This document shows positions 2,713 through 21,523 of a stretch of DNA of 64,000 nucleotides, one piece after another. The position numbers and the translations under genes are program-made. This stretch comes from Deltaproteobacteria bacterium (GTDB lineage: Bacteria > Desulfobacterota > Deferrimicrobia > Deferrimicrobiales > Deferrimicrobiaceae): positions 7,723 through 71,722 of the forward strand of contig JACRCO010000071.1 in NCBI GenBank assembly GCA_016218975.1, given 5' to 3'. The notes under the pieces are model-generated. The model was not told where the DNA came from. It did not search any database and saw only the letters and a program-made list of their open reading frames with translations. How positions within the stretch are numbered: the stretch's first letter is position 1; each line of letters begins with the position of its first letter.

Positions 2713-3819
2713 ATGAGTCTCATGCAGGAAGGACAGATCATTCGCGGGACGTATGAAGTCGAACGCCTGCTTGGCGAAGGCGCCTTCGCGGAAGTCTACC
2801 GCGTAAAGCATCGCTTCCTGGGACGGCAGGCCATGAAGGTTTTCAAGATGATCGGTATGACGATAGAAGAAACGGAACAAATGCTGGGAGAGGCGATCAT
2901 GCTTTCCCGGATCAGTCATCCGAACATCGTCCAGGTATTCGACGCCAACATCACCGAGACCTCAAGGGGAATCTGCGGTTTTTTCACGATGGAGTACGTT
3001 GCGGGAGGAAATCTCGAGCAGTATTGGAGATCCCACGGCGCGAGGTTCGTCCCGCTGAAGTCCGTGGTGGAAATCATCAAGCAGGTTTGCCGGGGCCTCT
3101 CCGTCGCGCACGGAGAGAATCCCCCGATCGTCCACCGGGACATCAAGCCGCATAACATCCTCGTTGGGTACGACGCGGCAGGACTGCGCGTCCGGGTCAG
3201 CGATTTCGGCCTCGCCAAGCGGGTGAACCCGCTGACCCTGAGGGCAAGCACGCGCGGAACACGCTGCTTCAAAGCTCCTGAGGCATTCAAGGATCCGCAA
3301 AGCGACTCGTGCACGGCGGACGTTTGGTCAATCGGAGCCACACTCTACCTTCTCCTGACGGACAGGCTTCCGTACGCGGATCCCGACGGGTACGACGTGT
3401 TCGATCCGGAAGCGTTCGAGAGGCCGATGCTTCCTCCGAGCCGGTTAAACATCGAAGTGGACGCCACCATCGACCGGATCCTGGAAAAAGCTCTTGATCG
3501 CCGGCCGGAGCACAGGTACAGGGACGCGCAGAGCCTTCTGGAGGATCTTTTGAAGTGGAAGCCGCGAACAGGGGGAAAGACATCACCCTCCGGCGGTGCG
3601 GATTCCAGTGGGTGGTCCAAGAGCGCGCTGGGCACTCATACTCCCGCCGATGAGGAACAGGCCAAGGCGATGGCAGATCAGGCCCTCGCGCTATCTCGAC
3701 AGGCGGAGATGCTGGCCGAAGCGGCGGACCTCATGGAAGAAGCGTTCAACAAATGCAGGGACCTTCGAACGAAACACGAGTATCAAGTTCGACTCTGGCG
3801 CAGGGGAATCGCATACTGA
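2713..3819 (+). CDS. Hanks-type serine/threonine protein kinase
   Basis: Within ORF 2602..3819. Start taken at ATG 2713 (MSLMQEGQIIRGTYEVERLLGEGAFAEVYRV). Gly-rich loop GEGAFAEV, VAIK-like AMKVFK, catalytic loop HRDIKPHNIL, DFG motif (VSDFGLAK), APE motif (FKAPEAF). Confidence 0.85.
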   Translation: MSLMQEGQIIRGTYEVERLLGEGAFAEVYRVKHRFLGRQAMKVFKMIGMTIEETEQMLGEAIMLSRISHPNIVQVFDANITETSRGICGFFTMEYVAGGNLEQYWRSHGARFVPLKSVVEIIKQVCRGLSVAHGENPPIVHRDIKPHNILVGYDAAGLRVRVSDFGLAKRVNPLTLRASTRGTRCFKAPEAFKDPQSDSCTADVWSIGATLYLLLTDRLPYADPDGYDVFDPEAFERPMLPPSRLNIEVDATIDRILEKALDRRPEHRYRDAQSLLEDLLKWKPRTGGKTSPSGGADSSGWSKSALGTHTPADEEQAKAMADQALALSRQAEMLAEAADLMEEAFNKCRDLRTKHEYQVRLWRRGIAY

Positions 3820-3845
3820 GCGAATACCGACGGAGCGCGTGAAGC

Positions 3846-5513
3846 GTGAGTGAAGCGGGTTTGGAAAAAAGGGATGACCGGCCGTCATCCGGTCCCGATA
3901 TCCTTCTGGCATCGGGCCGACCGGACCTTTACCGGAAGAATCCGTTCCGTGTCGCATGCCTGCCCGTGGACGCAACCCCAAGGGAGATATCGAAACAGAT
4001 CCACGCAATGGAAATGGAGGCGAAGTTCAGCGGAAAACTCCCGATGGGAAACCTTCCGCTGGATCCTCCGCCCGACCTGGATACCATTCGGGAATCCATA
4101 CATCGCCTCCGCGATTCGGAAGAGCGCCTTGTCGCAGAACTTTTCTGGATTTGGCCCAATCCGTCGGACAAGGGAACGGCGGATGAAGCCATGGTGGCCT
4201 TTTCGCGGGGGGATATCCACAAGGCAAAACAAATCTGGACGGCACGGGAGAGGACGGACGGCGTAAAAGGCATTCCGTCGCACAATCTGGCCGTCCTGGC
4301 TCATGCATCCGCCCTGGATCTCGAAGCACAATCCCTGTTTTTCCCTCTCTCGCGAACCCAGATCCATCAAAGAGAGGCGTACTGGAACGATGCCCTGGCG
4401 AAATGGAAGGCTGTGCTCGAGTGCGAAGGTTTCTGGAGCCGCGTTTCGACTCGCATCCGGGAACTCGATGACCCGCGCCTTAAATCAGGAGCCGCCCGCA
4501 GAATAAGGACTTCCCTTCCATCGGCCCTTGTTTCCATAACGGTGCGGCTGGCCGTCGCCGCAGCGGAAAAGGGAAACGATCCGGAGATCCGTAGACATCA
4601 TTCCATCCTCAAGAAGTGGGACGATGCTCTTTCCGGGCGGCAATCCGGCGGAAATTCATCGATATACCGTTCCCCAATCATCGTCGACGCTCTCCGGCAA
4701 GGCGTCGATCCGCTTCGCCAGCGGATCAAAGCGCTGACGAGGGCCGCGGAAAAAGACAAGGAAGTCAATGCCCGTAACGGACATTCGATCGCATCGAATC
4801 TTATCGAGCATTCGAGGCCCGTTCTTTCCGTGATGGACTCTATATTGCCGGAGGATTTCTCTTCCGGGGAAGCCGCTCATGACGAGGTTGCTCTTTCCCT
4901 TCATTCCTGCATCATCTCCTTCGGCGTCGAAACGAAGGACTGGAAGACGTGCGGAGAACTTCTTGAAATCGCGCTGGCAGTCGCGGCCGGGGAAGCCGCC
5001 AAAAGCAAGATCAAGGAAGATTTGCGGACAGTAAAGGAAAATCACGAATTCGGGAAAGTCCATGATACATGTTGGTTTTGCGGAAAGCAGCCGAAAGAGG
5101 AATCGCATTCCATCGAAGTCAGGATGCACGGCAATATTCAGCGAACACCGACAATCGGCGGGACGAATATCACCTGGCGACACATCAGAATCGTCGTTCC
5201 CAGGTGCGGGAAATGCCGTGCGGCTCATGCGAAAGCTTCCGAATGGGCCGCTATCGGCGGGATCGGCGGAGCGGTTGCAGGCGGATTGACCGGGTGCGGC
5301 GCAATCGGACACGGCGGGGCCGGAATATTGCTCATGATCTTGTTCGGCGCCGTCGGATTCCTGATCGGAAAATCGATCGATGAGAACAACCTGAGCGCCA
5401 TAAAAAATGCACATGCGGATTTCAAGCCTTTCAGCCACAGGAACGAATTCCCCCAGATCAAGCAACTCCTTTCCGAAGGGTGGCAATTCGGCGAAAGACC
5501 GAACAACAACTAA
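3846..5513 (+). CDS. J-like (HPD-less J-domain) protein with C-terminal zinc ribbon and Gly-rich membrane anchor
   Basis: ORF 555 aa with GTG start at 3846, 27 nt after the kinase stop. The N-terminus NPFRVACLPVDATPREISKQIHAM...IRESIHRLRDSEERLVAELF resembles J-domain helices II and III (compare [24 protein letters not shown]...EAYEVLSDPEKRAAYD) but lacks the HPD tripeptide. C-terminus has CWFCGK...PRCGKC (zinc-ribbon-like four Cys), then GGIGGAVAGGLTGCGAIGHGGAGILLMILFGAVGFLIG (Gly-rich hydrophobic helix). Confidence 0.6.
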   Translation: MSEAGLEKRDDRPSSGPDILLASGRPDLYRKNPFRVACLPVDATPREISKQIHAMEMEAKFSGKLPMGNLPLDPPPDLDTIRESIHRLRDSEERLVAELFWIWPNPSDKGTADEAMVAFSRGDIHKAKQIWTARERTDGVKGIPSHNLAVLAHASALDLEAQSLFFPLSRTQIHQREAYWNDALAKWKAVLECEGFWSRVSTRIRELDDPRLKSGAARRIRTSLPSALVSITVRLAVAAAEKGNDPEIRRHHSILKKWDDALSGRQSGGNSSIYRSPIIVDALRQGVDPLRQRIKALTRAAEKDKEVNARNGHSIASNLIEHSRPVLSVMDSILPEDFSSGEAAHDEVALSLHSCIISFGVETKDWKTCGELLEIALAVAAGEAAKSKIKEDLRTVKENHEFGKVHDTCWFCGKQPKEESHSIEVRMHGNIQRTPTIGGTNITWRHIRIVVPRCGKCRAAHAKASEWAAIGGIGGAVAGGLTGCGAIGHGGAGILLMILFGAVGFLIGKSIDENNLSAIKNAHADFKPFSHRNEFPQIKQLLSEGWQFGERPNNN

Positions 5514-5538
5514 CCGGAACGAAAATGGAATTTCCACG

Positions 5539-6126
5539 ATGACGACGGGCAAGGACATGAAATCGATGTGGCACTCAAGATCCGGCGCGTTTTCCGCGGA
5601 ATTGAGACAGCTTTACCATCCGAAGGAGTTTCAGATTCCCACGGTGGAATGGCCGGCCGACCTGATCGGTGCGATGGAACGCCTAAGCCGGGGCATGCTC
5701 GATTCGCAATCGAAGGGCATCCAGGGGGTAGAAAACCATTCCGACGATGCTGCGCGCCGCGATGAGTACCGGTTGTTCGCCGAGATAGGAACCGGTTTAT
5801 GGAGATTGAAGAGGCGGATGGTTCACCCGCAAACCGGGCGGCCGCAGGAAGAAATGAAGCGTGCTTTTCGTCACCTCGAATCTGTTTGGGACACGCTCGT
5901 CCAGGCGGGATTCGAGATTCGGGATCACACGGGGGACACAATGCCGGAAGGGGGTATATACGGCTTGAAGGTCATCGCGTTTCAGCCCGCCGCGGGCATC
6001 AGCCGTGATGTCGTTATCGAAACGGTCAAACCCTCCGTCTTCCGCATGAACAAGATGATCCAGATGGGAGAAGTCATCGTGGGCACTCCGGAAATAACGC
6101 CGGCCCCGCAAAAAGCGAAGGATTGA
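5539..6126 (+). CDS. GrpE-like nucleotide-exchange-factor candidate (divergent)
   Basis: Within ORF 5407..6126. Start taken at ATG 5539, just after the upstream stop at 5513. The C-terminal region AGFEIRDHTGDTMPEGGIYGLKVIAFQP...VKPSVFRMNKMIQMGEVIV aligns in spacing with the GrpE beta-sheet domain (G-V-E-[IL]...D-P..H-A...Q-K-G-Y-x-L-N-x-R-V-[IL]-R-x-A-x-V-x-V). It is divergent: the canonical DPxxH-A signature is not conserved. AAGGAGA RBS precedes the downstream Hsp70 gene. Confidence 0.45.
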   Translation: MTTGKDMKSMWHSRSGAFSAELRQLYHPKEFQIPTVEWPADLIGAMERLSRGMLDSQSKGIQGVENHSDDAARRDEYRLFAEIGTGLWRLKRRMVHPQTGRPQEEMKRAFRHLESVWDTLVQAGFEIRDHTGDTMPEGGIYGLKVIAFQPAAGISRDVVIETVKPSVFRMNKMIQMGEVIVGTPEITPAPQKAKD

Positions 6127-6159
6127 GGATCAGGGAATCCACTCAAGGAGAAACCCGAC

Positions 6160-8652
6160 ATGTCCAGAACGACCATAGACTTCGGAATCGATTTGGGAAC
6201 GACGAACAGCAGCATAGGGGTTATCCGGGGGACCGAGGTCGATATCATCCTGAACAACGAAAGTCAGCCGATCACGCCTTCCGCCGTGATGGTCGACAAG
6301 GGGGGGAGGATCATCGTAGGGCGCAGCGCCAAGGAAGGCCTCATGAAAGACCATGAAAACGCCTTCTGCGAATTCAAGCTCCAGATGGGAGAGAACACCG
6401 AATACGTTTTTCGGCGGAGCGGACGGCGATCGAAACCCGAAGACCTCTCGGCGGAAGTTCTCAAATCCCTTAAAGCGGACGTGAGGCTGAAGTTGAAGGA
6501 AGATATCGAAGCTGCGGTGATCACCGTGCCCGCAGCCTTCGAACTTCCGCAATGCGAAGCTACAAGGCAGGCCGCCCAACAAGCCGGCCTGCACACGACC
6601 ATCCTGATTCAGGAACCCGTCGCGGCCGCCTTGGCCTATGGATTTCAAACCGAAAGCGAGAAGGTATATTGGCTGGTCTACGATCTCGGGGGAGGAACGT
6701 TCGACGCCGCCGTCATGCAGGTACGGGACGACGAAATCCGCGTCGTGCATCATGACGGCGATAATCACCTCGGGGGAAAGCTTATCGATTGGGCAATCGT
6801 CGAGGATCTCCTAGTCCCGGCATTGCTCAAAGAACATCGTCTTCCTGATTTCCAACGCGGTAATCCGAAATGGGAGGGCGCGTTCCATGCACTGAAATGC
6901 TACGCGGAAAATGCGAAAATCCGCGTCTCCCGGGATGAAAAGGCGTATATCGACATCCCATTCATCTGCCATGAATATCCGAAGCCGTTCGAGTTCGAAT
7001 TGAAGCGGGATGACGTGGAGCGGCTTGCCCGGCCGATAATAATCCGCTCGATCAATCTATGTAAAAAAGTGTTGGCGGAAAAGCGGCTTGGGTTTGCCGA
7101 CATCGAAAAGGTACTTCTCGTGGGTGGTCCGACGTTGATGCCCTACTTGAGAAACCTTCTCTCGGACACCAACGACGGATTGGGAATCCCCTTGTCATAC
7201 ACGAACGATCCGCTCACTGTCGTCACCCACGGGGCGTCAATCTATGCGGGAACCAAGCGGCTGGAATCGGCAACCCCAATAAAAGCCGCCAAGGGACAAT
7301 ATGTCGTCGATCTCGAATACAAACCCAGCGGCCCGGACACGGAACCGTTCGTTTGGGGACGCGTCCGGGGATACGATGGAGAAATTCCGGACGGATTGAC
7401 GATCGAATTCATAAACACGGACTGCCGTCAGCAATGGCGAAGCGGCAGGATAGGAATTTCTCCCGACGGTACATTCAGGACGAACGTGCTGGCCGAGAAG
7501 GGACGAAGGAATGTGTTCTCGATCGAATTGTTCGATGCAAGGGGGACGAAACTCAATTGCCAGCCGGACAACTTCGCATACACGGTAGCGATTGAAATCG
7601 TCGACCCTCCTCTACCCCACAATGTGGGAGTCGCACTGGTCAACAATGATATGAACTGGGTGCTCGAAAAAGGCACGCCGCTGCCGGTAAGGAGAAAAAC
7701 CGATCTGAAATCCGCCTTCGAAGTCCGCAAGGGGGTGAAGGAACATATCATCAAGATCCCCTTGATGGAGGGGCAGAAAGCCCGGGCCAACCGAAACAAG
7801 TATATCGGGACTCTCGAAATTTACGGAGATCAAATAACCCGGGATGTTCCGGCAGGCAGCGACGTCGAGGTAACAATCCATATCGACCAGTCCCGTCAAA
7901 TGGTCGCGAAAGCCTACATCCCCATTCTCGATGAAGAATACGAGTTGAAATTCAATAAGAACGGCTACAGCGACAAAAGGAACCAAGAGGAAATCGCCAA
8001 GGAGCTTGAAATCCAGAAAAAGAGACTGGAGACCGTCCGTGAGAAAGCCCGCGGAATCTCTGACGGCGACGCCCGGCGCATCCTGCAACAAATCGACGAA
8101 GAGAGAATGATCCAGGACGTGGAAAAATCGCTGGCCGCATCACGCACCGACCGCGACGCCTCCGTCAAATGCGAAAAGAGACTTCTCGACCTCATGTCGG
8201 CGATCGACGAGGTCGAGGATGCGATAGAGTGGCCATCCCTCGTGTCGAACGCGGAGCGGGAGATCGAGGAGGAACGCAAAATCGTCAACAATAACGATTT
8301 CGGTGTAAAACCCGACGAGAAGAGACTTTTCACCGATCTGGAGCGCGAGGTCAGAACCGTGATGGATACACGGGACGCCGACCATCTCGCGCTTAAGGTC
8401 CGGGAACTGGAACGGCTGGGGATAACCATTCTGTTCCGCCAGCCCGGATGGTGGGTCGGATGTCTCGATCATCTGGAAAACCGAAGATCGACGATGAGCA
8501 ACCAGGACCTGGCCGGAAACTACATTGCGCAAGGCCGGAGGGCAATCAATACCGGCGATCTAGAATCCCTCAAGGCCGCAGTGCGCCAACTCTGGGGATT
8601 GCTGCCCCCGGGAGACAAGGATCGTGAAATATTTTCGACCGTAGGAAAGTAG
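6160..8652 (+). CDS. Non-canonical Hsp70 (DnaK-like) ATPase, 830 aa with extended coiled-coil C-terminus
   Basis: N-terminal actin-fold ATPase motifs: IDLGTTNSS; ITVPAAFELPQCEATRQAAQQAGLHTTILIQEPVAAALAYGF; VYDLGGGTFDAAVMQV; GDNHLGGKLIDWAIVE. Substrate-binding-domain-like middle region. About 250 aa of charged, coiled-coil-like C-terminus that canonical DnaK lacks. AAGGAGA RBS 8 nt upstream. Confidence 0.85.
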   Translation: MSRTTIDFGIDLGTTNSSIGVIRGTEVDIILNNESQPITPSAVMVDKGGRIIVGRSAKEGLMKDHENAFCEFKLQMGENTEYVFRRSGRRSKPEDLSAEVLKSLKADVRLKLKEDIEAAVITVPAAFELPQCEATRQAAQQAGLHTTILIQEPVAAALAYGFQTESEKVYWLVYDLGGGTFDAAVMQVRDDEIRVVHHDGDNHLGGKLIDWAIVEDLLVPALLKEHRLPDFQRGNPKWEGAFHALKCYAENAKIRVSRDEKAYIDIPFICHEYPKPFEFELKRDDVERLARPIIIRSINLCKKVLAEKRLGFADIEKVLLVGGPTLMPYLRNLLSDTNDGLGIPLSYTNDPLTVVTHGASIYAGTKRLESATPIKAAKGQYVVDLEYKPSGPDTEPFVWGRVRGYDGEIPDGLTIEFINTDCRQQWRSGRIGISPDGTFRTNVLAEKGRRNVFSIELFDARGTKLNCQPDNFAYTVAIEIVDPPLPHNVGVALVNNDMNWVLEKGTPLPVRRKTDLKSAFEVRKGVKEHIIKIPLMEGQKARANRNKYIGTLEIYGDQITRDVPAGSDVEVTIHIDQSRQMVAKAYIPILDEEYELKFNKNGYSDKRNQEEIAKELEIQKKRLETVREKARGISDGDARRILQQIDEERMIQDVEKSLAASRTDRDASVKCEKRLLDLMSAIDEVEDAIEWPSLVSNAEREIEEERKIVNNNDFGVKPDEKRLFTDLEREVRTVMDTRDADHLALKVRELERLGITILFRQPGWWVGCLDHLENRRSTMSNQDLAGNYIAQGRRAINTGDLESLKAAVRQLWGLLPPGDKDREIFSTVGK

Positions 8653-8653
8653 C

Positions 8654-9565
8654 ATGAGCGTAGATCCGATATCCGCCGCGTTAGCCCCTCTCATTCGGAA
8701 CGCCTTGATTTCCCGGGCGGCCAGCCTTGCAAGAAAAGGGAGTTACACTGAAGCGGAGAACCTGCTCGCTGCGGAAACCGGAGGAAAAGTAGAACACCCC
8801 TCGGTTCTCGACCTGCTCGCCCGTATCAAGGCACAACAGGGAAAGCTGTTCGAAGCGGAAGAATTGTGGACGAAGGCGTCCCGCATGGAACCGGGCAATC
8901 CAGAATATCAGGCCGGCTTGAGGCGGATTTCGCAAATCAGAAAGAGGGGATTCTCACGGCGATCCCTGCTCACATCCACAACAGCAGTTTGCGGGGTCCT
9001 GGTCCTTCTCGCCGCGGGTATCTTTCTGAAAATCCGTTTCACGGAATCGGGCGTTCGCAACGAAACCGTTTCCGGCAAGGTCGGCGGATCTTACGCCGAC
9101 GGAATCCCCGCTTCGGCAACCGGCGTGCTGCAATCCATCGTGCTCGACATCCCCGGTGGAATCGTAACAAAAAGGAACTCGGGTTTCGATATCACATTCG
9201 AATACGGACTTTTTTCTTCGAAGGTCCGACTCAAGGGCAAGGCGAAAAAATCCATCGCCGCCCTCGCCCGCCGACTGGAACCATACAAGGAACGGATTTC
9301 CATAACCGTGATCGGTCATGCGGACAGCAATCCGGTTCCGGATGGCGCGTATTTCAGGGACAATATGTCCCTCTCGCTCGCCCGGGCCGTCGCCGTGATC
9401 GAGTCGATGCGCTCGGCTGCCTCCCTCCCCTCCGGGATCTTCCTGGCAACGGGATACGGCGAATATTCCCCTCCGTATTCAAACAGGACGAGAAATGAAC
9501 GTCTTCGCAACAGGTCGGTTACGATAAAGATATCGGCGCAGGGGACAAATCCAACACTTCCATAG
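8654..9565 (+). CDS. TPR-containing, membrane-anchored OmpA/MotB-domain (peptidoglycan-binding) protein
   Basis: Starts 1 nt after the Hsp70 stop. N-terminal TPR-like segment, one TM helix (AVCGVLVLLAAGIFL). C-terminal OmpA-like domain (ITVIGHADSNPVPDGAYFRDNMSLSLARAVAVIESM...RNRSVTIKI). Confidence 0.75.
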   Translation: MSVDPISAALAPLIRNALISRAASLARKGSYTEAENLLAAETGGKVEHPSVLDLLARIKAQQGKLFEAEELWTKASRMEPGNPEYQAGLRRISQIRKRGFSRRSLLTSTTAVCGVLVLLAAGIFLKIRFTESGVRNETVSGKVGGSYADGIPASATGVLQSIVLDIPGGIVTKRNSGFDITFEYGLFSSKVRLKGKAKKSIAALARRLEPYKERISITVIGHADSNPVPDGAYFRDNMSLSLARAVAVIESMRSAASLPSGIFLATGYGEYSPPYSNRTRNERLRNRSVTIKISAQGTNPTLP

Positions 9566-9592
9566 CGCGAATGATATCTACCCGCGCATGGA

Positions 9593-11107
9593 TCACCCTT
9601 CTCCGTCCCCGGTCCACTCGAACAGGGTTTCGGGGATTTTCTTCGTCCACGAATATTTCCCCTGGAACATTTGTCTGGCTTGTCCCCGGCTCGTACCCGC
9701 CTCGCGGAAGAACCGGTCCACAAACGCGCTCGGCGACAGCAGCAAAGCGTAAAAGAGATGCTTCTTCTCCACGAACTTCCGCCCTTCGTCGCCGGCTACG
9801 AAGCGGGCGTCCTCAAGTACACGCCGGTAGTTCAGGGTCGGCCGCGGGATAGCACCCTTCGTGCGGATGCCTGCCCTCGAGATTTTCCTGTATATTCCGA
9901 GGAGGAACGTCCGGTCGGCAGCTAAATATGAAAAAATTTGTTCCATAAAAGGATCTTCCGCCCCCTCGTACAACAGGAAACTACCGAAAAGGTGCCGTGT
10001 CTCGAGAGTGGCGTATCCTTCCTCCCGGGCGATAACTTCCGCTCGCCTAATCACCTCGACCGCTCCCGGCTGGAACGGAAACTGGAGAGGCGCCACCGTC
10101 TGGCGCGCCGCAGCGACATCGACGGCAAAGAGGAATCGGTCCTCATGGAGAAGTTCGCATGCAAGGCCTGCGGACTCATTGAACGAAAGAACCTTCCCTG
10201 CTCTTCCCGTCACTCCGGTTGCTTCAAGGAGTAGCAGTTTCGCCTTCCTTATCGCATCGATCAACCGTCCGGGATCGGTCACAACCGGTTCGAATCGTTC
10301 GGACAGATCGGTCCAGCACCCGAGAAGGCAATGGAGGAAGCTCTCTCCCTCCCGGACGACGATCAGCAACGGCTGAAGACGGACGCTTTCAAGGCACGAC
10401 GCAAACAGGAGACAAAGGTCGATGCAGGTGCCCACACCCGCTTTCTTTTCGACGGACGGAATGATTACATGCGGAGGGCGGATGACCTGGCAGTCCCGCT
10501 CGTAACTCGGGGGTTCGAACGCATACCGGATCCGGTATTCCCGGGCAAGGCAATCGTAGAGAGCTTTGTTTACACCTTCGGTTCCGCCGACCCACCCAGC
10601 CCTTCTAAACGGATCGAACAGGTAGGAGGACGCATCGGCGCCCAGCCGATCCGCCGAATCCAGGAGAATATGCTGAACGACCGGGTGGGAAGGCTGAACG
10701 AACGCCGCAAGGCTCGCACGGAATTCTGAGGCCAACGGCCATTCATAGAATCCGAGAATAGGGATATCATCTGTCCGAGCCTTCCGGCCGTCGATGTAAA
10801 AATCCAGCCTCCCGTTCTTTTTCCCCTCTTGCCCTTCAAGGATTTCGTATCGGAGGACCGGGGAGATCCCGGAGACCGTGATTTTTCCCCCGGGAAGTAT
10901 CGGGCCCAGGCGCCGTTCCCACCGTTCTCCATACCCCGGAATCTCGAACCCCACGACCGGGGTAACGGGCGAATGACCTTCATTCCGAACGACAAAATCG
11001 GAAATAACGGGAATGCCGCAGTGATAAAGGACATAATTTACCGCGGAAGCTTTTCGGTAGGAGACCGCAAGATCCCCCATCCGGAACCTGACGAAAGCTG
11101 ATTTCAT
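9593..11107 (-). CDS. Transglutaminase-like cysteine-protease-domain protein with C-terminal Clp-N-like repeats
   Basis: ORF 504 aa. Core GVGTCIDLCLLFASCLESVRLQPLLIVV...H...D resembles the transglutaminase-like Cys-His-Asp core (G.C.DFA.LF.AL.RA.GIPAR). The C-terminal half has two Clp_N-type repeats (ATLETRHLFGSFLL..., KKHLFYALLLSP). Overlaps the upstream anti-sigma gene by 4 nt. Confidence 0.55.
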   Translation of the reverse strand: MKSAFVRFRMGDLAVSYRKASAVNYVLYHCGIPVISDFVVRNEGHSPVTPVVGFEIPGYGERWERRLGPILPGGKITVSGISPVLRYEILEGQEGKKNGRLDFYIDGRKARTDDIPILGFYEWPLASEFRASLAAFVQPSHPVVQHILLDSADRLGADASSYLFDPFRRAGWVGGTEGVNKALYDCLAREYRIRYAFEPPSYERDCQVIRPPHVIIPSVEKKAGVGTCIDLCLLFASCLESVRLQPLLIVVREGESFLHCLLGCWTDLSERFEPVVTDPGRLIDAIRKAKLLLLEATGVTGRAGKVLSFNESAGLACELLHEDRFLFAVDVAAARQTVAPLQFPFQPGAVEVIRRAEVIAREEGYATLETRHLFGSFLLYEGAEDPFMEQIFSYLAADRTFLLGIYRKISRAGIRTKGAIPRPTLNYRRVLEDARFVAGDEGRKFVEKKHLFYALLLSPSAFVDRFFREAGTSRGQARQMFQGKYSWTKKIPETLFEWTGDGEG

Positions 11108-11790
11108 ATCAAAAACGGTCTGTACTCACCGTCGGGGACGCCTTCGAATTCGGTCACGAGAATATCCCCTCCCGGCTGCGAAACCGCCCTAAATGCGCCG
11201 ATCAGAGGCTCCCCCCCATGCTCCGGGACGAGGAGGACGATGGGCCATGGTTCATCGAGCATCTGTGATGCAACCGAGATTGTACGCGAAGCGGCGCTGG
11301 CGGTTATTTTCATCCATGGCGGCCCGCCCGTTTCCACCGTGACGACCTCCGATCCCCCTGCGCCGCGGATACGGCCTTGTGATACGGTAGCAAACAGCGG
11401 ATTCGGCCCCCCCGAAAAGATATTTTCAAGCTCCTCTCCGGCGCCTTTCGCGATTCTCCCTCGCGCGTCAAGCAGAAACCGGACAGGACTTCGAACCTTT
11501 CCACCGAATTTCTCAACCCAGGAAGCGATCCTCGCAGCGATCCGGGTATCCCCGGCATATGCAGGAAGGAACCCCTGAATCGCCCGTTTCGAAGCATCGG
11601 GTCCGACGCCTCCGGATGTCCACCATTCCCAGACCTCGCCGAACCATTCCTTGATAAGAAAGCATCGCCGAACCTTGCCCGCGCAGAGGTCGCACGAAGC
11701 CATGTGGACCTCAGCGCGAAAAGCTTCCTCTCCGGAAACAAGATCCCGGACATATGCCTGCATTTCCTTAAGCGTCAGGTGCGCGATCAT
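11104..11790 (-). CDS. Zinc-finger anti-sigma factor (putative)
   Basis: N-terminus MIAHLTLKEMQAYVRDLVSGEEAFRAEVHMASCDLCAGK carries the H-x3-C-x2-C zinc-binding anti-sigma motif. Start overlaps the sigma gene stop by 4 nt (operonic). Confidence 0.6.
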   Translation of the reverse strand: MIAHLTLKEMQAYVRDLVSGEEAFRAEVHMASCDLCAGKVRRCFLIKEWFGEVWEWWTSGGVGPDASKRAIQGFLPAYAGDTRIAARIASWVEKFGGKVRSPVRFLLDARGRIAKGAGEELENIFSGGPNPLFATVSQGRIRGAGGSEVVTVETGGPPWMKITASAASRTISVASQMLDEPWPIVLLVPEHGGEPLIGAFRAVSQPGGDILVTEFEGVPDGEYRPFLI

Positions 11791-12674
11791 CGCTCGATCT
11801 CCGGCGTCAACTCGTCTCCCTGCGGTTCGACGTCGAATTCCTCCTTGATCCTTTTCTTCACTTTATGGCACCAGTCGTAAATGGAAGACTCCCTCCGATC
11901 TTCGGCGGTGATGAATTTTCCCAGCGGGATATCGCGGACCTTCCCGTCCCCGCATAAATCCCTGATGTCGAGGTATTCCTTCTCGACATAAACTTCCCGG
12001 GCCGTTCTCTCAAGGGATCGGTTCGTGCCCTCCCAGCAATTGCGGTAGGCCGCGCGGGAAACCATTTCCGAAGGATCGGAAAAACCGCCAGTGAACGATT
12101 GATGGTGGATATCGATCAGGCTTTCGAGGAGATCCCCCAATCGGCGGTTTTCGCTGTTTTTCAGGAAAAATCGCGGTTTCCAATGCAGCAGCTTGACAAA
12201 CCCGAAGGCAATGGCCTGATGAGGTTTGACTGAACACTCCGAGAGCGCCTGGATCATCAACAGGGAGGTCTGGGGATCCGGATGGACGGGCGTGCTGAAT
12301 GCCGGCCGGGGAAGCGGGTTTCTTTCAGCGAAGTCGATCATTCCCTTTTTCATTTTCGTCAAGTAACGCAAATAGACGAATCCCGCCAGATTGCGAAGAA
12401 AAGTGAAAAAGGCATATTCGTACTTGTACTTGCCCCCAAGCAGATTTTTATACGCATAGATGAACGTGTCCTGGCAAAGATCTTCATGAGCGCTTTCGTC
12501 CCAAACGCGGCACCGAAAGTACCCCTTTATCGCCTCGTTATACGCATCGTAAAGTAGTTCCCATGCGGACATGTCCCCGTTTCCGGCAAGTTCGGCGAGG
12601 CGGCGCTGTTCTTCCCTGGATAAAGCGGCATCGGCCACCGCCGACCTCCATTCCATCCGGTATGCGATCGACAT
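11787..12674 (-). CDS. RNA polymerase sigma-70 family factor (ECF-like, divergent)
   Basis: ORF 295 aa. Region-2-like DLCQDTFIYAYKNL and downstream FLRNLAGFVYLRYL. Adjacent and coupled to a zinc-finger anti-sigma gene. Longer than typical ECF sigma factors, so the assignment is moderate. Confidence 0.5.
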   Translation of the reverse strand: MSIAYRMEWRSAVADAALSREEQRRLAELAGNGDMSAWELLYDAYNEAIKGYFRCRVWDESAHEDLCQDTFIYAYKNLLGGKYKYEYAFFTFLRNLAGFVYLRYLTKMKKGMIDFAERNPLPRPAFSTPVHPDPQTSLLMIQALSECSVKPHQAIAFGFVKLLHWKPRFFLKNSENRRLGDLLESLIDIHHQSFTGGFSDPSEMVSRAAYRNCWEGTNRSLERTAREVYVEKEYLDIRDLCGDGKVRDIPLGKFITAEDRRESSIYDWCHKVKKRIKEEFDVEPQGDELTPEIER

Positions 12675-12858
12675 CCCTCGGTTCCGTGTATTTTACGTGT
12701 TGCGCCATCTTCAATGCCATAACAACGATCCGGATTTTATTCCCCTCCCCGTCTTTATTTTCCATTTACGCCGAACCGGGGGTTTTCTCGCTCTCCCCGT
12801 GCCGCGGATGCTGCGGGCTCGAAAGTCAGCGGATTTACGGAGCGGGTTCCCGGGGACG

Positions 12859-15108
12859 TTAAACCATCATGTGGTACGGGTCGACGTCGGCCTCGATGCG
12901 GACGCCGTGCTTGCGGACGAGGTCGCGCAGGGGTCGAAGGAGCGGCGGGAAGAAATCCCCGACGGGAAACCGCGGGGGCATCTTCAAAAGGATCTGGAAC
13001 CGGTGCTTCTTTTTCACGAAGGAAATGGGGGACGGGGCGGGGCCCAACAGGCCGATGCCCGCGGCGGACACCGGCTTCGACAGCTCTTCCGCCGCTTCCT
13101 CCGCCGCCTGCCGGACACGGTCTTCCTTCGGCCCCCACAGGCGCAACAGAAGCATACGACCGAAGGGAGGGTAGCCCAGCGCTTTCCTCCCCGCCAGTTC
13201 CTCCTCCATGAAACGGGCGAAATCGTGTGCGGCCGCCGCGCGTATGCAGACATGTTCCGGGGAAAGGGTCTGGACGATCACCCTTCCCGGCCGGTCCCCT
13301 CTCCCTGCGCGCCCCGCCACCTGCGTCAGTATCTGGAACGTCCGCTCCGAGGACCGGAAATCGGGGAAGGAAAGGGACAGGTCGGCGAGAAGCACACCCA
13401 CGAGCGTCACCTCCGGGAAATCGTGTCCCTTGGCGATCATCTGGGTGCCCACAAGGATGTCCACGTCCCCGGAATGCATACGGGCAAGGATTTCTCCGTA
13501 CATTCCTTTCCTGCGGCTTATGTCGGAATCCAGGCGGGCAACACGGGCATCCTTCCAGCGTTTGGAGGCCCACGCAAGGAGCCGTTCCGTGCCGATCCCT
13601 ACCTGTGCCAGCTTGTGCCCGCCGCACACCGCGCACCTCTCCGGAGGGGATGTCCTGGCATCGCAATAGTGGCACAACAGCGCGTCGTGCTGCTGGTGGA
13701 AGGTAAGGGTCACCCGGCAGTTGCGGCATTGAACCGTCTGTCCGCAATCGAGGCAGGTGACGGCCGGCGCATATCCCCTGCGGTTGAGGAAGAGCATGGC
13801 CTTTTCACCCCGGCCCATCGTTTCCTCGACGGCCTCCTCCAGTTCGGGGGAAAAATAGCGGTCCGCGCCCCGCAGGGAAGTGCGGTTTTTCAGGTCCACG
13901 ATCCGGATCTCCGGCAGATCCCTTCCGCCGATCCGCTCCGGCAGGGAGAGCAGCGCCGCCTCCCCTTCCCGAGCCATCTGCATCGATTCCGCGGAAGGGG
14001 TAGCGGAGCCCAGCAGGACGACGGCGTTCTCCAGCTTCCCCCGCAGGATCGCCAGATCCCGTGCCTGGTAGCGGATCCCGTCTTCCTGCTTGTAAGCGGC
14101 GTCATGCTCTTCGTCGACGATGAAAAGCCCGGGTGCAGGGAATGGCGAGAAGACGGCGGACCGCGCGCCGACGCATAAGAAAACCTCGCCGGCCCGGACC
14201 TTGCGCCATTGCGCCGCCCGCTCCGCAGGCGAGAGCCCGCTGTGAAGTACGGCCACGCCGCCGCCGAACCGGGAGGCGACCCGGCCGAGAAGCTGGGGAG
14301 TCAGCGCGATCTCGGGCACGAGATAAACCGCTTGCCTTCCCGTCTGCCGGACCTGTTCAACGGCCCGCAGGTAGACTTCCGTCTTCCCGGAACCTGTTAT
14401 GCCGTGCAGCACGAAGACTGCGAACTTCTCCGAGGAGAGCGCTACTCCTATTTTCACGAGCGCCGCTTCCTGGTGCGGGGTGGGGACGATCTCCCCCGTC
14501 ATGTCGGGGAGGTGCATTTCATGCAGCCCGACGGGTTTCTCCCGCACCGCCGCGGCGAGCCGTCCCTTCGCAGCCAGCCTCTTCGCGGCCTCCGCCCCGC
14601 CCGGAATGCGCGCGGAGAGATCGGCGGCGGATATCTCGCCGGCCTCCAGCACGGCGGAAAGGACCTCCCGCTGCTTCGGGGTCGTGTCGCCGTCGTTTCC
14701 GCCGTCCACCGGACGGAAGACCGTCTCCGTGCGGGGCCCGGAGGGGATGTCTCTCCGGGGAAGGCCGCGGGGAAGCGCGGCGCGCAGCATTTCGCCCAGC
14801 GGCGCAAGGCATTCGCGGGAGGCGATGGAAAGGAACTCCAGGTGGCGGGGCGTTACGTACGGCTCCTCGTCGAGGAAGGAAATGACGGATTTCGCTTCCC
14901 GCCCGGCGAGGGAGGAGCCGTCCGCCAAAGCGACGATCAGGCCCGCGACCTTCCTCGGCCCGAACGGAACGAGGACGCGGACGCCTACCTTCGCACGCTC
15001 CTCCGCGCCTGGCGGAACCCGGTAAGTGAACGTGTGGTCGAGCGGCAGCGGGACCGCCACTTCGACATATAAAGGCGAAGGGGATGGAACGGGATTCATC
15101 CGCTCCAT
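12859..15108 (-). CDS. priA: Primosomal protein N' (PriA helicase)
   Basis: N-terminus VAVPLPLDHTFTYRVP. Walker A GITGSGKT. DEEH box (FIVDEEHD). Cys-rich zinc-binding insert (CLDCGQTVQCRNCRVTLTFHQQHDALLCHYCDARTSPPERCAVCGG). Start ambiguous among 15108, 15099 and 15174. Confidence 0.9.
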   Translation of the reverse strand: MERMNPVPSPSPLYVEVAVPLPLDHTFTYRVPPGAEERAKVGVRVLVPFGPRKVAGLIVALADGSSLAGREAKSVISFLDEEPYVTPRHLEFLSIASRECLAPLGEMLRAALPRGLPRRDIPSGPRTETVFRPVDGGNDGDTTPKQREVLSAVLEAGEISAADLSARIPGGAEAAKRLAAKGRLAAAVREKPVGLHEMHLPDMTGEIVPTPHQEAALVKIGVALSSEKFAVFVLHGITGSGKTEVYLRAVEQVRQTGRQAVYLVPEIALTPQLLGRVASRFGGGVAVLHSGLSPAERAAQWRKVRAGEVFLCVGARSAVFSPFPAPGLFIVDEEHDAAYKQEDGIRYQARDLAILRGKLENAVVLLGSATPSAESMQMAREGEAALLSLPERIGGRDLPEIRIVDLKNRTSLRGADRYFSPELEEAVEETMGRGEKAMLFLNRRGYAPAVTCLDCGQTVQCRNCRVTLTFHQQHDALLCHYCDARTSPPERCAVCGGHKLAQVGIGTERLLAWASKRWKDARVARLDSDISRRKGMYGEILARMHSGDVDILVGTQMIAKGHDFPEVTLVGVLLADLSLSFPDFRSSERTFQILTQVAGRAGRGDRPGRVIVQTLSPEHVCIRAAAAHDFARFMEEELAGRKALGYPPFGRMLLLRLWGPKEDRVRQAAEEAAEELSKPVSAAGIGLLGPAPSPISFVKKKHRFQILLKMPPRFPVGDFFPPLLRPLRDLVRKHGVRIEADVDPYHMMV

Positions 15109-15189
15109 CTTACCCCGGACGCGGCCGGTAGCGAGCCCGCATTTCTCATCATGCTTCGCCGCTGTGGGAAGCATTGCGAACAGAGAAGG

Positions 15190-16428
15190 CTAAACGTAAA
15201 CAGTACGCTCCACCATCCCTCCCCGGATCGTGAGCATCAAGGCAAGGTAATCCCGCAGGTTCCGGGTAAGCAGGAAATTCTCCCGGACGAACTCCCGGCC
15301 CCTTTCGCCCATTTCCTTCATCCGGTCACGGTGGTGCAGCAGGTACCGGATCCTGTGCGCCGCTCCTTCGGGAGTGTTGACGAGGAATCCGGTCTGATAA
15401 TTGGTCACCTGGATACGGATCCCTCCGACGTCTCCCCCGATCACGGGTTTACCCTTCCAAAGCCCTTCCGTGACGGTTAGGCCGAACCCCTCACGGGTCG
15501 ATTTCTGAAGGACGATCTCCGCCAGGCGCTGGAGGGCATTGACGGTCTTGTGCGCGTCCGACGGGAGCAGGAGGACGTGAATGTCCGGGTCCCCGTTCGC
15601 AGCCTCCATCACATCGTCGAATACCGCCTTCCCTTCGGGGTCGTCGGTCGCCCCTCCTCCGGCCAGGACGAGCTGTACGGGAGCCACGTTGCGCACCAGC
15701 CGGTACGCCCGGATCACCCCGACCGGGTCCTTGAACCGGTCGAACCGTGAGATCTGGACGAGCAGCGGCCGCTCCGGGTCGAGCCGGAATTCCGCGCGGA
15801 CGCTCTCAAGCTCCGCCGGGGTCAAATCACGGTTCTTCTCGCTTAAAGGGTTTATGCTCGGCGGGATCAGGAACTGCGGGATCGGCAGGTGCTGGGCGAA
15901 TTGAGCCATCGAGAAGATGCTTGCGTCGTACTTGTCCACGTATGTGCGCAGGACTTTCCAGACGGGCCGGAACGGATGGCTTATGTCGATGTGGGCGCGC
16001 CAGATCCATTTCCCCTTCCTGTTTGAGCACAGTTTCAGCAGGAAAGCCGGCTGGGGATCGTGGATGACGACGAAGTCCGCTTCCGCCAGCAGCGGACGAA
16101 GCCGCTCCGCGTTAGTCTCGTTTTCCTCCTGGTAGGTCCTCCAGTCCTTTTTCGGAATGTCGACAGGCTTCCCCTGGAGGCCGTTGTGGATCGCCTTGGT
16201 GATCTCGAAGAACCTGCGAGTGCCGTGGATAACCTCCCAGGAGGCATCCACCCCCACGTCCTGCATGTGCGGGATCATCCAGTCCAGGATCTCCGCGACT
16301 CCGCCCCCTTCACGCGTGGAATTCACGTGGACGATCCGTTGCCCGGCAAGTTTTTCGCCGAGCCGCCGCAGCTGCCCGACGACGGAGGAGCCCACGATCG
16401 GCTCATAGGCGGCAAGGGAGGAGCTCAT
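15190..16428 (-). CDS. GT4 glycosyltransferase, TreT-like trehalose synthase (putative)
   Basis: Within ORF 15190..16560. Start taken at ATG 16428 (MSSSLAAYEP). HVNSTREGGGVAEIL N-terminal motif typical of TreT-type GT4 enzymes. C-terminal GT-B motif KSTREGFGLTVTEGLWKGKPVIGGDVGGI. Sits in the trehalose (TreY/TreZ) neighbourhood. Confidence 0.7.
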   Translation of the reverse strand: MSSSLAAYEPIVGSSVVGQLRRLGEKLAGQRIVHVNSTREGGGVAEILDWMIPHMQDVGVDASWEVIHGTRRFFEITKAIHNGLQGKPVDIPKKDWRTYQEENETNAERLRPLLAEADFVVIHDPQPAFLLKLCSNRKGKWIWRAHIDISHPFRPVWKVLRTYVDKYDASIFSMAQFAQHLPIPQFLIPPSINPLSEKNRDLTPAELESVRAEFRLDPERPLLVQISRFDRFKDPVGVIRAYRLVRNVAPVQLVLAGGGATDDPEGKAVFDDVMEAANGDPDIHVLLLPSDAHKTVNALQRLAEIVLQKSTREGFGLTVTEGLWKGKPVIGGDVGGIRIQVTNYQTGFLVNTPEGAAHRIRYLLHHRDRMKEMGERGREFVRENFLLTRNLRDYLALMLTIRGGMVERTVYV

Positions 16429-17078
16429 ATGCCTTCCTTCACCTGCAACAGGACCCGCGCCAGTTCCTTGCGAAGGTGGGCGAGGTTGTGGAACTGGAAG
16501 TCGATCGATGCAAGCGCCTTGAGGTAAGGCTCGAATTCCTTGCCTGCCTCCGACAGCCATGCCGAAAAATCGTCCTTTCCCACCGGCGGACGTCTCAAGG
16601 CTTCAAGGAAGTGGTAGTAGATGCTCCCGTTCGTCATCCTGAGGATGGCGGGGGCCAGGTCCAGCGGAGCATGGATGAAATCCCCGGTGTCGAAGACGAC
16701 GGTCGTGGCTTCCATGAACAGGAATTCATCGCCGTGCCTCACCCAGGGGACGTACGGCAACTCCCCGAGCCGGTCGTCTATGATGTCGAGGGTAACCGTT
16801 CTCATCTCATCCATGCCGGATGCGGCGTACGGGTCCAGGATCCCCAGCCGCTCCGCCAGTACGCGGTCGCCCAGGTACCGCTTGATCCAGACCGCGAAGT
16901 CGTTCCGGTAATCCGGATCGTCGAACGTCGGCCGGAGCGTCGTTTCGCAGAAGTGATGGTAAAGCACCCCTTCCCCGCAGACGGCGATTCGTTCCCGCAA
17001 CTCACGCATGCTCATCGCCGGGGGCAGGCCGCTCGTCCGGACGAGCAGCGCGCAATCCTTCACCTCGAAAGGGGCCAT
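16425..17078 (-). CDS. Hypothetical protein (operonic with TreT-like gene)
   Basis: ORF 16425..17105. Preferred start ATG 17078, preceded by an AAGGAGA RBS. No recognisable motifs. 4-nt overlap with the downstream GT4 gene. Confidence 0.45.
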   Translation of the reverse strand: MAPFEVKDCALLVRTSGLPPAMSMRELRERIAVCGEGVLYHHFCETTLRPTFDDPDYRNDFAVWIKRYLGDRVLAERLGILDPYAASGMDEMRTVTLDIIDDRLGELPYVPWVRHGDEFLFMEATTVVFDTGDFIHAPLDLAPAILRMTNGSIYYHFLEALRRPPVGKDDFSAWLSEAGKEFEPYLKALASIDFQFHNLAHLRKELARVLLQVKEGI

Positions 17079-17226
17079 GCCGCCTCGTCTCCTTTTTCCC
17101 GGCATTCTTCATAGAAGTAGACAGGCGATGAAACTCGCAAGTTTCAGGAAAGGACACGAATCAGCAAGGCGCGCCTCTCATCTTAGTGAGTGGAATATCG
17201 GATGGGGTGGGATAGGAACCGCCTGG

Positions 17227-19068: not shown

Positions 19069-19080
19069 AGGGCAAGGGGC

Positions 19081-21519: not shown

Positions 21520-21523
21520 CCAC

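Follow-up and report, generated by a model that had tools for sequence, protein, structure and literature searches.

A conserved gene cassette predicted to encode a kinase-coupled, membrane-associated Hsp70 machine distinct from DnaK and HscA

Hsp70 systems have been studied as thoroughly as almost any molecular machine, yet few dedicated bacterial versions are known to us, namely HscA/HscB and HscC/DjlC. In Escherichia coli, the dedicated Hsp70 paralogue HscC has a J-type co-chaperone of its own, the membrane-anchored DjlC, which recruits it; the J-domain of DjlC carries the canonical histidine-proline-aspartate (HPD) motif, HscC is not known to be regulated by GrpE, and no kinase or OmpA partner is known for the pair. 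The mitochondrial presequence translocase-associated motor (PAM) is built from mtHsp70, Pam18, the J-like Pam16, Mge1 (GrpE) and Tim44. Myxococcus has the non-housekeeping DnaK paralogues SglK/GrpS and StkA, of which SglK and StkA are DnaK-sized; sglK adjoins a grpE homologue whose product is a recognisable GrpE, and we know of no kinase/J-like/OmpA cassette for these paralogues. Here we analyse a five-gene cassette on the plus strand, at positions 2713-9565 of a 64,000-nucleotide (nt) stretch (hereafter, the window) of contig JACRCO010000071.1 from a Deltaproteobacteria metagenome-assembled genome (MAG; GCA_016218975.1). Its genes encode a Hanks-type Ser/Thr kinase, a J-like protein, a GrpE-like protein, an Hsp70 of 830 amino acids (aa) and a protein with tetratricopeptide repeat (TPR)-like, transmembrane (TM) and OmpA regions (gene 5), and we hold with good confidence that they form a dedicated, kinase-coupled Hsp70 machine.

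We propose, with a probability of roughly 60%, that this machine is self-contained and non-housekeeping, assembles at the inner membrane, is linked to its cognate Ser/Thr kinase and has as its likeliest role the nucleoside triphosphate-driven sensing or thresholding of conflict or envelope stress. The biological role is the least certain part of this proposal; it is most likely not general protein folding. The cassette would add a widespread system (~1,000 clusters) to the dedicated bacterial Hsp70 systems. The parallel loss of HPD and of the residue that reads it makes the cassette a natural test case for Hsp70 coupling without the canonical J-domain mechanism, and the co-evolving Hanks kinase would make phospho-control of a bacterial Hsp70 cycle directly testable. 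On the conflict reading, the cassette would be an immune switch based on a chaperone; should that reading be wrong, the cassette is still an uncharacterised chaperone motor tethered to the envelope.

The five open reading frames (ORFs) are co-directional and separated by gaps of 26, 25, 33 and 1 nt (Table 1). A simple scan, which is weak evidence, found no promoter-like or terminator-like site on the plus strand inside the cluster, so a single transcription unit fits. A preliminary description, made from the sequence alone, had read the locus as a tight run of genes for a Hanks kinase, a membrane-anchored protein with an HPD-less J-like N-terminus, a small GrpE-like protein, an 830-aa Hsp70 and a TPR protein whose OmpA domain would anchor the whole at the envelope. 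The profile searches and structure predictions given below bear out the layout and all five identities, including the J-like and GrpE folds that the description had proposed to check by modelling. Two points needed amendment: the GrpE-like protein has the expected fold but 195 rather than 196 aa, and gene 5 does carry a TM helix and an OmpA domain, yet its system-specific part is the TPR-like/TM region. The 555-aa and 195-aa products are identical to the NCBI hypothetical proteins HY896_10000 (550 aa in the NCBI model) and HY896_10005, respectively, of the Deltaproteobacteria MAG.

Table 1 Coordinates of the cassette, its protein domains and neighbouring genes (positions in the window unless a locus handle is given)
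Feature	Position	Strand	Details
Kinase gene	2713-3819	+	368 aa
J-like protein gene	3846-5513	+	555 aa
J-like domain without HPD	3939-4148	+	aa 32-101
All-helical repeat (TPR/solenoid-like) domain of J-like protein	4185-5066	+	aa 114-407
Zinc ribbon of J-like protein	5070-5216	+	CxxC at 409/412 and 454/457, beta hairpin 423-451
Glycine-zipper and hydrophobic membrane anchor of J-like protein	5217-5411	+	aa 458-522
GrpE-like protein gene	5539-6126	+	195 aa
Hsp70 gene	6160-8652	+	830 aa
Hsp70 nucleotide-binding domain (NBD)	6160-7257	+	aa 1-366
Family-specific insert of ~100 aa, between NBD/linker and beta subdomain of the substrate-binding domain (SBD-beta)	7312-7611	+	aa 385-484
Divergent DnaK-like SBD-beta	7612-7929	+	aa 485-590
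C-terminal extension of ~240 aa with terminal L..LLP motif	7930-8652	+	aa 591-830
Gene 5 (TPR-TM-OmpA)	8654-9565	+	303 aa
Gene 5 cytoplasmic TPR-like domain	8654-8953	+	aa 1-100, weak TPR matches
Gene 5 single TM helix	8978-9034	+	aa 109-127, hydropathy 2.18
Gene 5 periplasmic OmpA/MotB-type peptidoglycan-binding domain	9209-9541	+	aa 186-296, Pfam OmpA E 3.5e-10
Convergent gene	9593-11107	-	504 aa, antiphage_ProA-N-like domain and C-terminal Clp_N-like repeat
228-aa protein	11104-11790	-	no family named
Extracytoplasmic function (ECF)-sigma-like protein	11787-12674	-	295 aa, region-2 matches, E 2e-7 to 1e-5
PriA helicase	12859-15174	-	housekeeping flank
TreT-type trehalose synthase	15190-16560	-	metabolic flank
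Two alpha-amylase-family proteins	17008-19068 and 21161-24400		flank of cassette
Sixth-gene examples in other loci	L009:14034-16502, L019:14040-16373, L026:14052-15191, L042:5278-5766, ~25 other loci		

The association of these genes is not due to chance, since their order repeats in dozens of unrelated genomes. A profile of the GrpE-like family, scanned against one genome per species (185,579 species representatives), yielded 75 loci in which we called ORFs and searched them with profiles of the window proteins. Strong synteny is seen over 74 species-representative genomes; the counts that follow cover loci with sufficient flanking sequence. The Hsp70 gene stands directly after the GrpE-like gene in 60/62 loci and the J-like gene is present in 60/60, with the kinase in 41/52 (79%) and gene 5 in 43/61 (70%). 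The conserved core is thus the J-like, GrpE-like and Hsp70 genes, and the kinase and gene 5 are very frequent without being universal. The strict order kinase, J-like, GrpE-like, Hsp70, gene 5 is kept in 22 of 46 loci, and most of the others are small permutations of it. The 75 loci are patchily distributed over more than 12 phyla (Acidobacteriota, Nitrospirota, Chloroflexota, Planctomycetota, Verrucomicrobiota, Actinomycetota, Bacteroidota, Myxococcota, Thermodesulfobacteriota, Proteobacteria, Gemmatimonadota, Elusimicrobia and Firmicutes, plus one Methanothrix MAG), with cultured carriers that include Chthoniobacter flavus Ellin428, Actinomadura (A. rayongensis), Streptomyces and Promicromonospora. 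At 50% identity the cassette family comprises ~1,000 clusters.

All five proteins are inherited as one unit across phyla. Over 31 complete cassettes, pairwise identities correlate with those of Hsp70 at r = 0.87 for the kinase, 0.75 for the GrpE-like protein and 0.73 for the J-like protein, in a mirror-tree comparison that ignores shared species phylogeny. The kinase is the most conserved component over the same cassettes (mean identity 56%), with Hsp70 at 48%; conservation is lowest for the J-like protein (30%) and gene 5 (27%). Gene tables of contigs that carry close Hsp70 homologues display three contexts, namely an identical cassette, a GAP1-N2/DO-GTPase locus (L001) and a variant carrying a diversity-generating retroelement (DGR). 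In a Nitrospira MAG, the identical cassette has PP2C upstream of it and, downstream, a ClpB-like AAA+ gene.

The Hsp70 component has the machinery of an active ATPase in an unusual frame. Its NBD (Pfam HSP70, aa 8-364, E = 1.8e-74) matches DnaK NBDs in the Protein Data Bank (PDB) with E = 1e-54 and is ~40% similar to DnaK. The protein scores 260 bits against DnaK equivalog cut-offs of 822.55 and 648 (TIGR02350 and NF001413) and 204 bits against the HscA cut-off of 708.55 (TIGR01991), and the genes neighbouring the cassette include no isc genes. The protein has more than 8,000 relatives; those nearest to it are ~830 aa long, 50-60% identical over their full length and drawn from many phyla; on these sequence relationships, we assign the cassette Hsp70 to a distinct ~830-aa family that is neither DnaK nor HscA. 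In an alignment of 177 family members, read with a DnaK reference sequence verified by alignment, the counterparts of DnaK D8, K70, E171, D194, T199 and D201 are kept in 176-177 of the sequences. Since these catalytic residues are invariant or nearly so, the 830-aa protein is very likely an active, competent ATPase. Other positions have changed: the equivalent of DnaK R167 is Pro in the family and Ile148 in the window protein, and that of N170 is Gln. R167 of DnaK contacts the Asp of HPD in the DnaK-DnaJ complex (5NRO). Both HPD and its reader residue have been lost here, which suggests that the J-like protein and Hsp70 are probably coupled through a co-evolved, non-canonical interface. The insert at aa 385-484 has no DnaK counterpart in alignments and is moderately conserved within the family, and the SBD-beta gives weak, in-register matches to DnaK SBD-beta structures (1q5l and 1dg4, E = 0.2). 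The tail ends in a motif whose residues L811, L814, L815 and P816 are kept in at least 169 of the 177 members.

Neither the 555-aa nor the 195-aa protein has any match in Pfam, NCBIfam or PADLOC, and this work gives folds to both of these 'hypothetical' families, which the three collections miss. The N-terminus of the 555-aa protein is a remote J-domain homologue with a four-helix fold and no HPD. In a profile-profile comparison, residues 10-115 aligned with nine J-domains at an hhalign probability of 93.8% (P = 1.7e-7); three of the nine reference sequences are corroborated by the output of a PDB profile search. That search, made with the family alignment of 80 sequences, returned eight matches, all of them J-domains in one shared register (E = 0.6-1.8). 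The AlphaFold2 (AF2) model, with a predicted local distance difference test score (pLDDT) of 92 and a predicted template modelling score (pTM) of 0.84, places the helices of this domain at residues 33-36, 45-61, 78-89 and 91-99. The residues K-F-S (family consensus K-L-G) stand in place of HPD, and the loop between helices II and III is longer than usual and holds a conserved LPLDPPPD. Farther along the protein, the zinc ribbon forms strands in the AF2 model and its cysteines C409, C412 and C454 are invariant in the family alignment, with C457 nearly so; several family members have Zn-ribbon Pfam matches. The membrane anchor is indicated by a hydropathy peak at 490-508, AF2 helices at 455-489 and 492-522 and weak matches to YiaD glycine-zipper and Gly-zipper models. 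Among relatives the C-terminus is swappable for HEAT arrays, Sel1 repeats, FHA or EAD11.

For the 195-aa protein, the AF2 model (pLDDT 87) has long helices followed by a six-stranded beta domain, and thus the long helix, helical bundle and C-terminal beta domain that define the GrpE fold. Scanned singly, 33 of the 105 homologues in the family alignment match Pfam GrpE (PF01025) weakly, the best with E = 2.8e-4, and such matches far outnumber those to any other Pfam family; a PDB sequence-profile search with the family found nothing. Among 1.84 billion sequences, the family counts 1,076 cluster representatives at E <= 1e-10, and its profile has only 1,554 matches at E <= 1e-3. The divergence from GrpE must be deep, because the bulk of canonical GrpEs is missed by the profile. 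We predict from the model that the 195-aa protein is a highly divergent GrpE-fold protein that would act as a nucleotide-exchange factor.

The two remaining products supply a putative signalling input and a link to the cell wall. The kinase (Pfam Pkinase, E = 4e-43) has a complete set of catalytic motifs (G-loop, AMK, HRD141, DFG164 and APE188) and no TM segment by hydropathy, and is predicted to be soluble and catalytically active. In gene 5, the OmpA domain also matches the C-terminal domains of TssL, MotB and MotD in NCBIfam, all under cut-off. The N-terminal TPR-like/TM part is matched in 42 of 43 gene-5 homologues and the OmpA part in 30 of 43; from this pattern, the system-specific part of the protein is the cytoplasmic TPR-like and TM region rather than the OmpA domain.

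We hypothesize that the J-like protein would serve as an adaptor or sensor, tethering Hsp70 at the membrane and presenting a client or ligand by means of C-terminal modules that evolve fast and can be swapped (two TM segments and a Zn ribbon in the window; HEAT, Sel1, FHA or a DGR-diversified lectin-fold protein elsewhere). Its coupling to Hsp70 would run through a non-canonical interface in which HPD and R167 are both replaced, and the GrpE-like protein would reset Hsp70 by nucleotide exchange. Gene 5 would fix the complex to peptidoglycan, with its TPR-like domain probably binding the Hsp70 tail. The kinase may gate assembly or activity by phosphorylation, a step suggested by J-like variants fused to FHA and by PP2C or FHA genes in the neighbourhood. 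The output would, in many genomes, likely pass to a Clp_N-like protein fused to a ClpA/B-type double AAA+ unfoldase or a nucleotide cyclase. Such a protein is encoded by a sixth gene, just 3' of gene 5 in ~29 loci, which has a Clp_N-like N-domain of ~200 aa either alone, with a ClpA/ClpB-type double AAA+ module (~775-820 aa) or with an adenylate/guanylate cyclase; the ClpA/ClpB-like proteins score under all curated Clp cut-offs. The window has no such plus-strand sixth gene.

Some loci depart further from the layout in the window. In the Pyrinomonadaceae loci L020, L023, L024 and L031 the order is kinase, GrpE-like, short J-like (~390 aa) and Hsp70, with a divergent second kinase of ~630 aa, a vWA/TerY-C protein and GAF-cyclase genes nearby, a context that resembles TerY-P-like signalling. 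Second Hsp70 copies consisting of the NBD only (~370-406 aa) occur at L040:13000-14220, L045:5877-6992 and L050:6177-7298.

Compared with the described systems, the cassette would work like DnaK-DnaJ-GrpE, with which it shares three folds and presumably the ATP cycle, yet it falls outside DnaK, HscA and the canonical J-proteins. Its Hsp70, at 830 aa, has a ~100-aa insert between linker and SBD-beta, a long tail and no equivalents of R167 and N170, its J-like protein lacks HPD, a membrane anchor, a kinase and an OmpA protein come in addition, and no hrcA/dnaJ context surrounds the locus. The preliminary description had set the locus apart from the housekeeping dnaK-dnaJ-grpE locus and had found no named system for it; both judgements stand against the reference models, for DnaK, HscA, DO-GTPase/GAP1, MADS, Zorya and CoCoNuT alike, and the neighbourhood search that it had suggested recovered the gene order across phyla. 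The nearest functional analogies may be HscC-DjlC and the mitochondrial PAM motor. With HscC-DjlC the cassette would share a dedicated Hsp70 and a membrane-anchored J-type partner. With the PAM motor it would share, as analogy only, a membrane-tethered Hsp70, an exchange factor of the GrpE family and a J-like protein without HPD; it differs in lacking a translocon and any counterpart of the HPD-bearing Pam18, in being evolutionarily unconnected to the motor, and in adding a kinase and a peptidoglycan anchor. The Myxococcus paralogues, set beside the cassette by description only, likewise have non-housekeeping Hsp70 roles outside general folding. Full-text literature searching, in which coverage is incomplete and absence is not proof, found no paper on this kinase-Hsp70 cassette.

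Several named defence systems were considered and set aside. In PADLOC, the kinase best matches mad6 (E = 6e-59) and PD-T4-6 (E = 1e-55), the latter as expected of any Hanks kinase. MADS was rejected because the kinase scores 149.7 bits against the NCBIfam MADS6 cut-off of 460 and no other mads gene was matched by PADLOC in the operon. Zorya was rejected because there is no ZorA match, acidic residues are missing from the gene-5 TM helix, and the PADLOC ZorB matches to gene 5 are confined to its OmpA domain (aa 191-295). EACC1-DnaK fusions are a different system. In CoCoNuT systems the Hsp70-like CnuD, whose ATPase motifs are degenerate, is coupled with homologues of McrB and McrC (eLife 2024, PMC11090510); the catalytic residues of the cassette Hsp70 are invariant, and CoCoNuT was rejected because no McrB-like GTPase or McrC-like domain was found among the neighbours, the window having no McrBC genes.

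A link to conflict systems is hinted at by relatives of the cassette. An Hsp70 of the same family, 56% identical, lies in the GAP1-N2/DO-GTPase locus L001. In a Zhuqueibacterota MAG (GCA_049322915.1; L004), a DGR sits inside the cassette, at 4356-7241 between the J-like and GrpE-like genes, with a target of formylglycine-generating enzyme (FGE)-sulfatase/lectin fold, bAvd and a reverse transcriptase (RT). Its variable repeat (VR, 5185-5321) and template repeat (TR, 5867-6003) are 88% identical and all mismatches fall at TR adenines. A search of plasmids found only four distant relatives. One is a module at 5202-12727 of the Haliscomenobacter hydrossis plasmid pHALHY02 (NC_015512.1; L082), which directly adjoins BREX brxL/pglZ and McrBC-like genes. 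Its products are a 'CFI-box-CTERM' protein that fits the profile of the J-like family (E = 3.5e-30), a protein of 299 aa with a GrpE-like beta end, an Hsp70 of 841 aa, a kinase-AAA+ fusion of 604 aa and TerB.

An RT homologue of the L004 DGR is also present in L039. L004 itself contains a perfect 127-nt direct repeat (4129-4255 and 4356-4482), which joins the 3' end of a HEAT-like 394-aa gene with the 5' end of the DGR target gene, and a third copy of 48 nt (4484-4531) that is 92% identical. On the Pseudomonas hygromyciniae conjugative plasmid pSDM007 (L081), the segment 5421-10401 encodes a TPR-like protein of 706 aa, one of 117 aa that has a GrpE-like beta-domain motif (E = 4.5e-5), and an Hsp70 of 833 aa. 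Around them lie insertion sequence (IS) elements, one RelE/ParE toxin-antitoxin pair and genes of the PAPS-reductase family.

The role of the cassette is unproven, and a conflict or stress-sensing role is plausible. For a defence (conflict) role as such we would give somewhat less than even odds. One specific form of it is an immune or stress sensor built on the Hsp70 cycle, in which a phospho-gated Hsp70, anchored to membrane and cell wall and served by a dedicated J-like receptor and a GrpE-like reset factor, would detect foreign or aberrant proteins at the envelope (e.g., during phage entry or assembly) and trigger outputs such as the Clp_N-AAA+ unfoldase, the nucleotide cyclase or protease-like proteins; we regard this form as doubtful. 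If true, it would be a chaperone-based analogue of STAND or MoxR-vWA switches spread over more than 12 phyla. A number of results weigh against our proposal or parts of it. The J-like homology is remote, since none of the 80 family members matches Pfam DnaJ, and a J-like domain without HPD might not stimulate Hsp70 ATPase at all. The 195-aa protein lacks a Pfam GrpE match; we infer its exchange activity from the fold alone, and we infer every protein-protein contact in the cassette. The correlations of identity retain whatever phylogeny the carrier species share. The window contains no recognisable toxic effector. Among 143 cassette-flanking genes (Pfam and PADLOC, on crude longest-ORF calls that make this a weak negative), there was no clear enrichment of defence genes; the recurrent flanking families are FHA, GAF, sigma-54 activators, cyclases and TPR, suggesting signal transduction. 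Cross-phylum conservation at 56% for the kinase and 48% for Hsp70 is also unusual for arms-race genes.

A rival reading is that the cassette has no defence role and is an envelope proteostasis or transport motor, with a membrane-tethered Hsp70 that would pull, hold or extract polypeptides at the inner membrane in a PAM-like way. Under phospho-regulation it would belong to the normal physiology of the cell, in envelope stress, secretion, development, motility or, as for Myxococcus DnaK paralogues, exopolysaccharide. The membrane anchor of the J-like protein and its peptidoglycan-anchored partner fit such a motor, as do the ClpA/B-type AAA+ unfoldase that often lies downstream, recalling Hsp70-ClpB bichaperone logic, the strong conservation of kinase and Hsp70, the dominance of signal-transduction families rather than defence genes in the flanks, and the FHA, PP2C and sigma-54 regulators among the neighbours. 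We nevertheless consider it unlikely. The distribution is patchy, at 75 matches in 185,579 species representatives, which speaks against a role in core physiology; relatives are associated with a DGR, with GAP1-N2/DO-GTPase systems and with BREX; the J-like protein has swappable modules; and no conserved client, translocon or secretion genes were found nearby.

It is far less probable that the cassette is a reduced member of the DO-GTPase/GAP1-N2 conflict systems, with HSP70 and GrpE as accessories to a GTPase-centred switch. An HSP70+GrpE module has been noted in silico within these systems (Kaur, Burroughs, Iyer & Aravind, eLife 2020, PMC7159879), and that article records, for 14% of GAP1-N2 neighbourhoods, HSP70+GrpE, NBD-only Hsp70 and partners fused to DnaJ or TPR. 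The likeness extends to the same Hsp70 family, the pairing with a GrpE-like protein, a J/TPR-type partner and NBD-only copies in some loci; those in L040, L045 and L050 fit its 'HSP70 sans peptide-binding domain'. In L001 the Hsp70, GrpE-like and J-like genes lie between GAP1-N2/GAP1-M, FN3-repeat and DO-GTPase2 genes. However, DO-GTPase and GAP1 genes were detected only in L001: this core gene pair is absent from the first ~24 kb of the window and, in phmmer searches that took the L001 proteins as queries (single-sequence sensitivity), from all 75 genome loci, and the identity was rejected on that ground. The usual context is instead a cognate Hanks kinase and a TPR-TM-OmpA protein, with or without the Clp_N-AAA+ gene, and PMC7159879, in the sections consulted, does not describe the kinase/J-like/GrpE-like/Hsp70/OmpA arrangement. 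Since the kinase-linked cassette is the predominant context, the Hsp70 triad looks autonomous and sometimes recruited by GTPase systems. Hardly credible at all is an ordinary DnaK/HscA-type paralogue with fortuitous neighbours, or a stand-alone PD-T4-6/MAD6-type defence kinase beside a chaperone gene: despite the PADLOC matches of the kinase and the NBD similarity to DnaK, the NCBIfam scores lie far under the DnaK, HscA and MADS6 cut-offs, the kinase and Hsp70 co-diverge (r = 0.87), the cassette has its own GrpE-fold and J-like partners, and the cross-phylum gene order already contradicts it.

Downstream of the cassette, a three-gene operon on the minus strand (9593-12674) converges on it. Its 504-aa product matches NCBIfam NF058533 antiphage_ProA over aa 24-351 (E = 4.6e-40, far under cut-off), a domain that may have a transglutaminase-like Cys fold, and over aa 349-493 fits the Clp_N-like N-domain profile of the sixth gene of other cassettes (E = 2.6e-7). 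No full-length homologue of this protein was found in other cassette loci, and apart from the Clp_N-like similarity the three genes have no homologues in the other 80 loci; the operon was accordingly rejected as a conserved partner. The 504-aa gene is a possible, uncertain accessory of the cassette in the window. The genes beyond it, at 12859-24400, are housekeeping and metabolic, indicating that the cassette occupies a short variable stretch amid ordinary genes.

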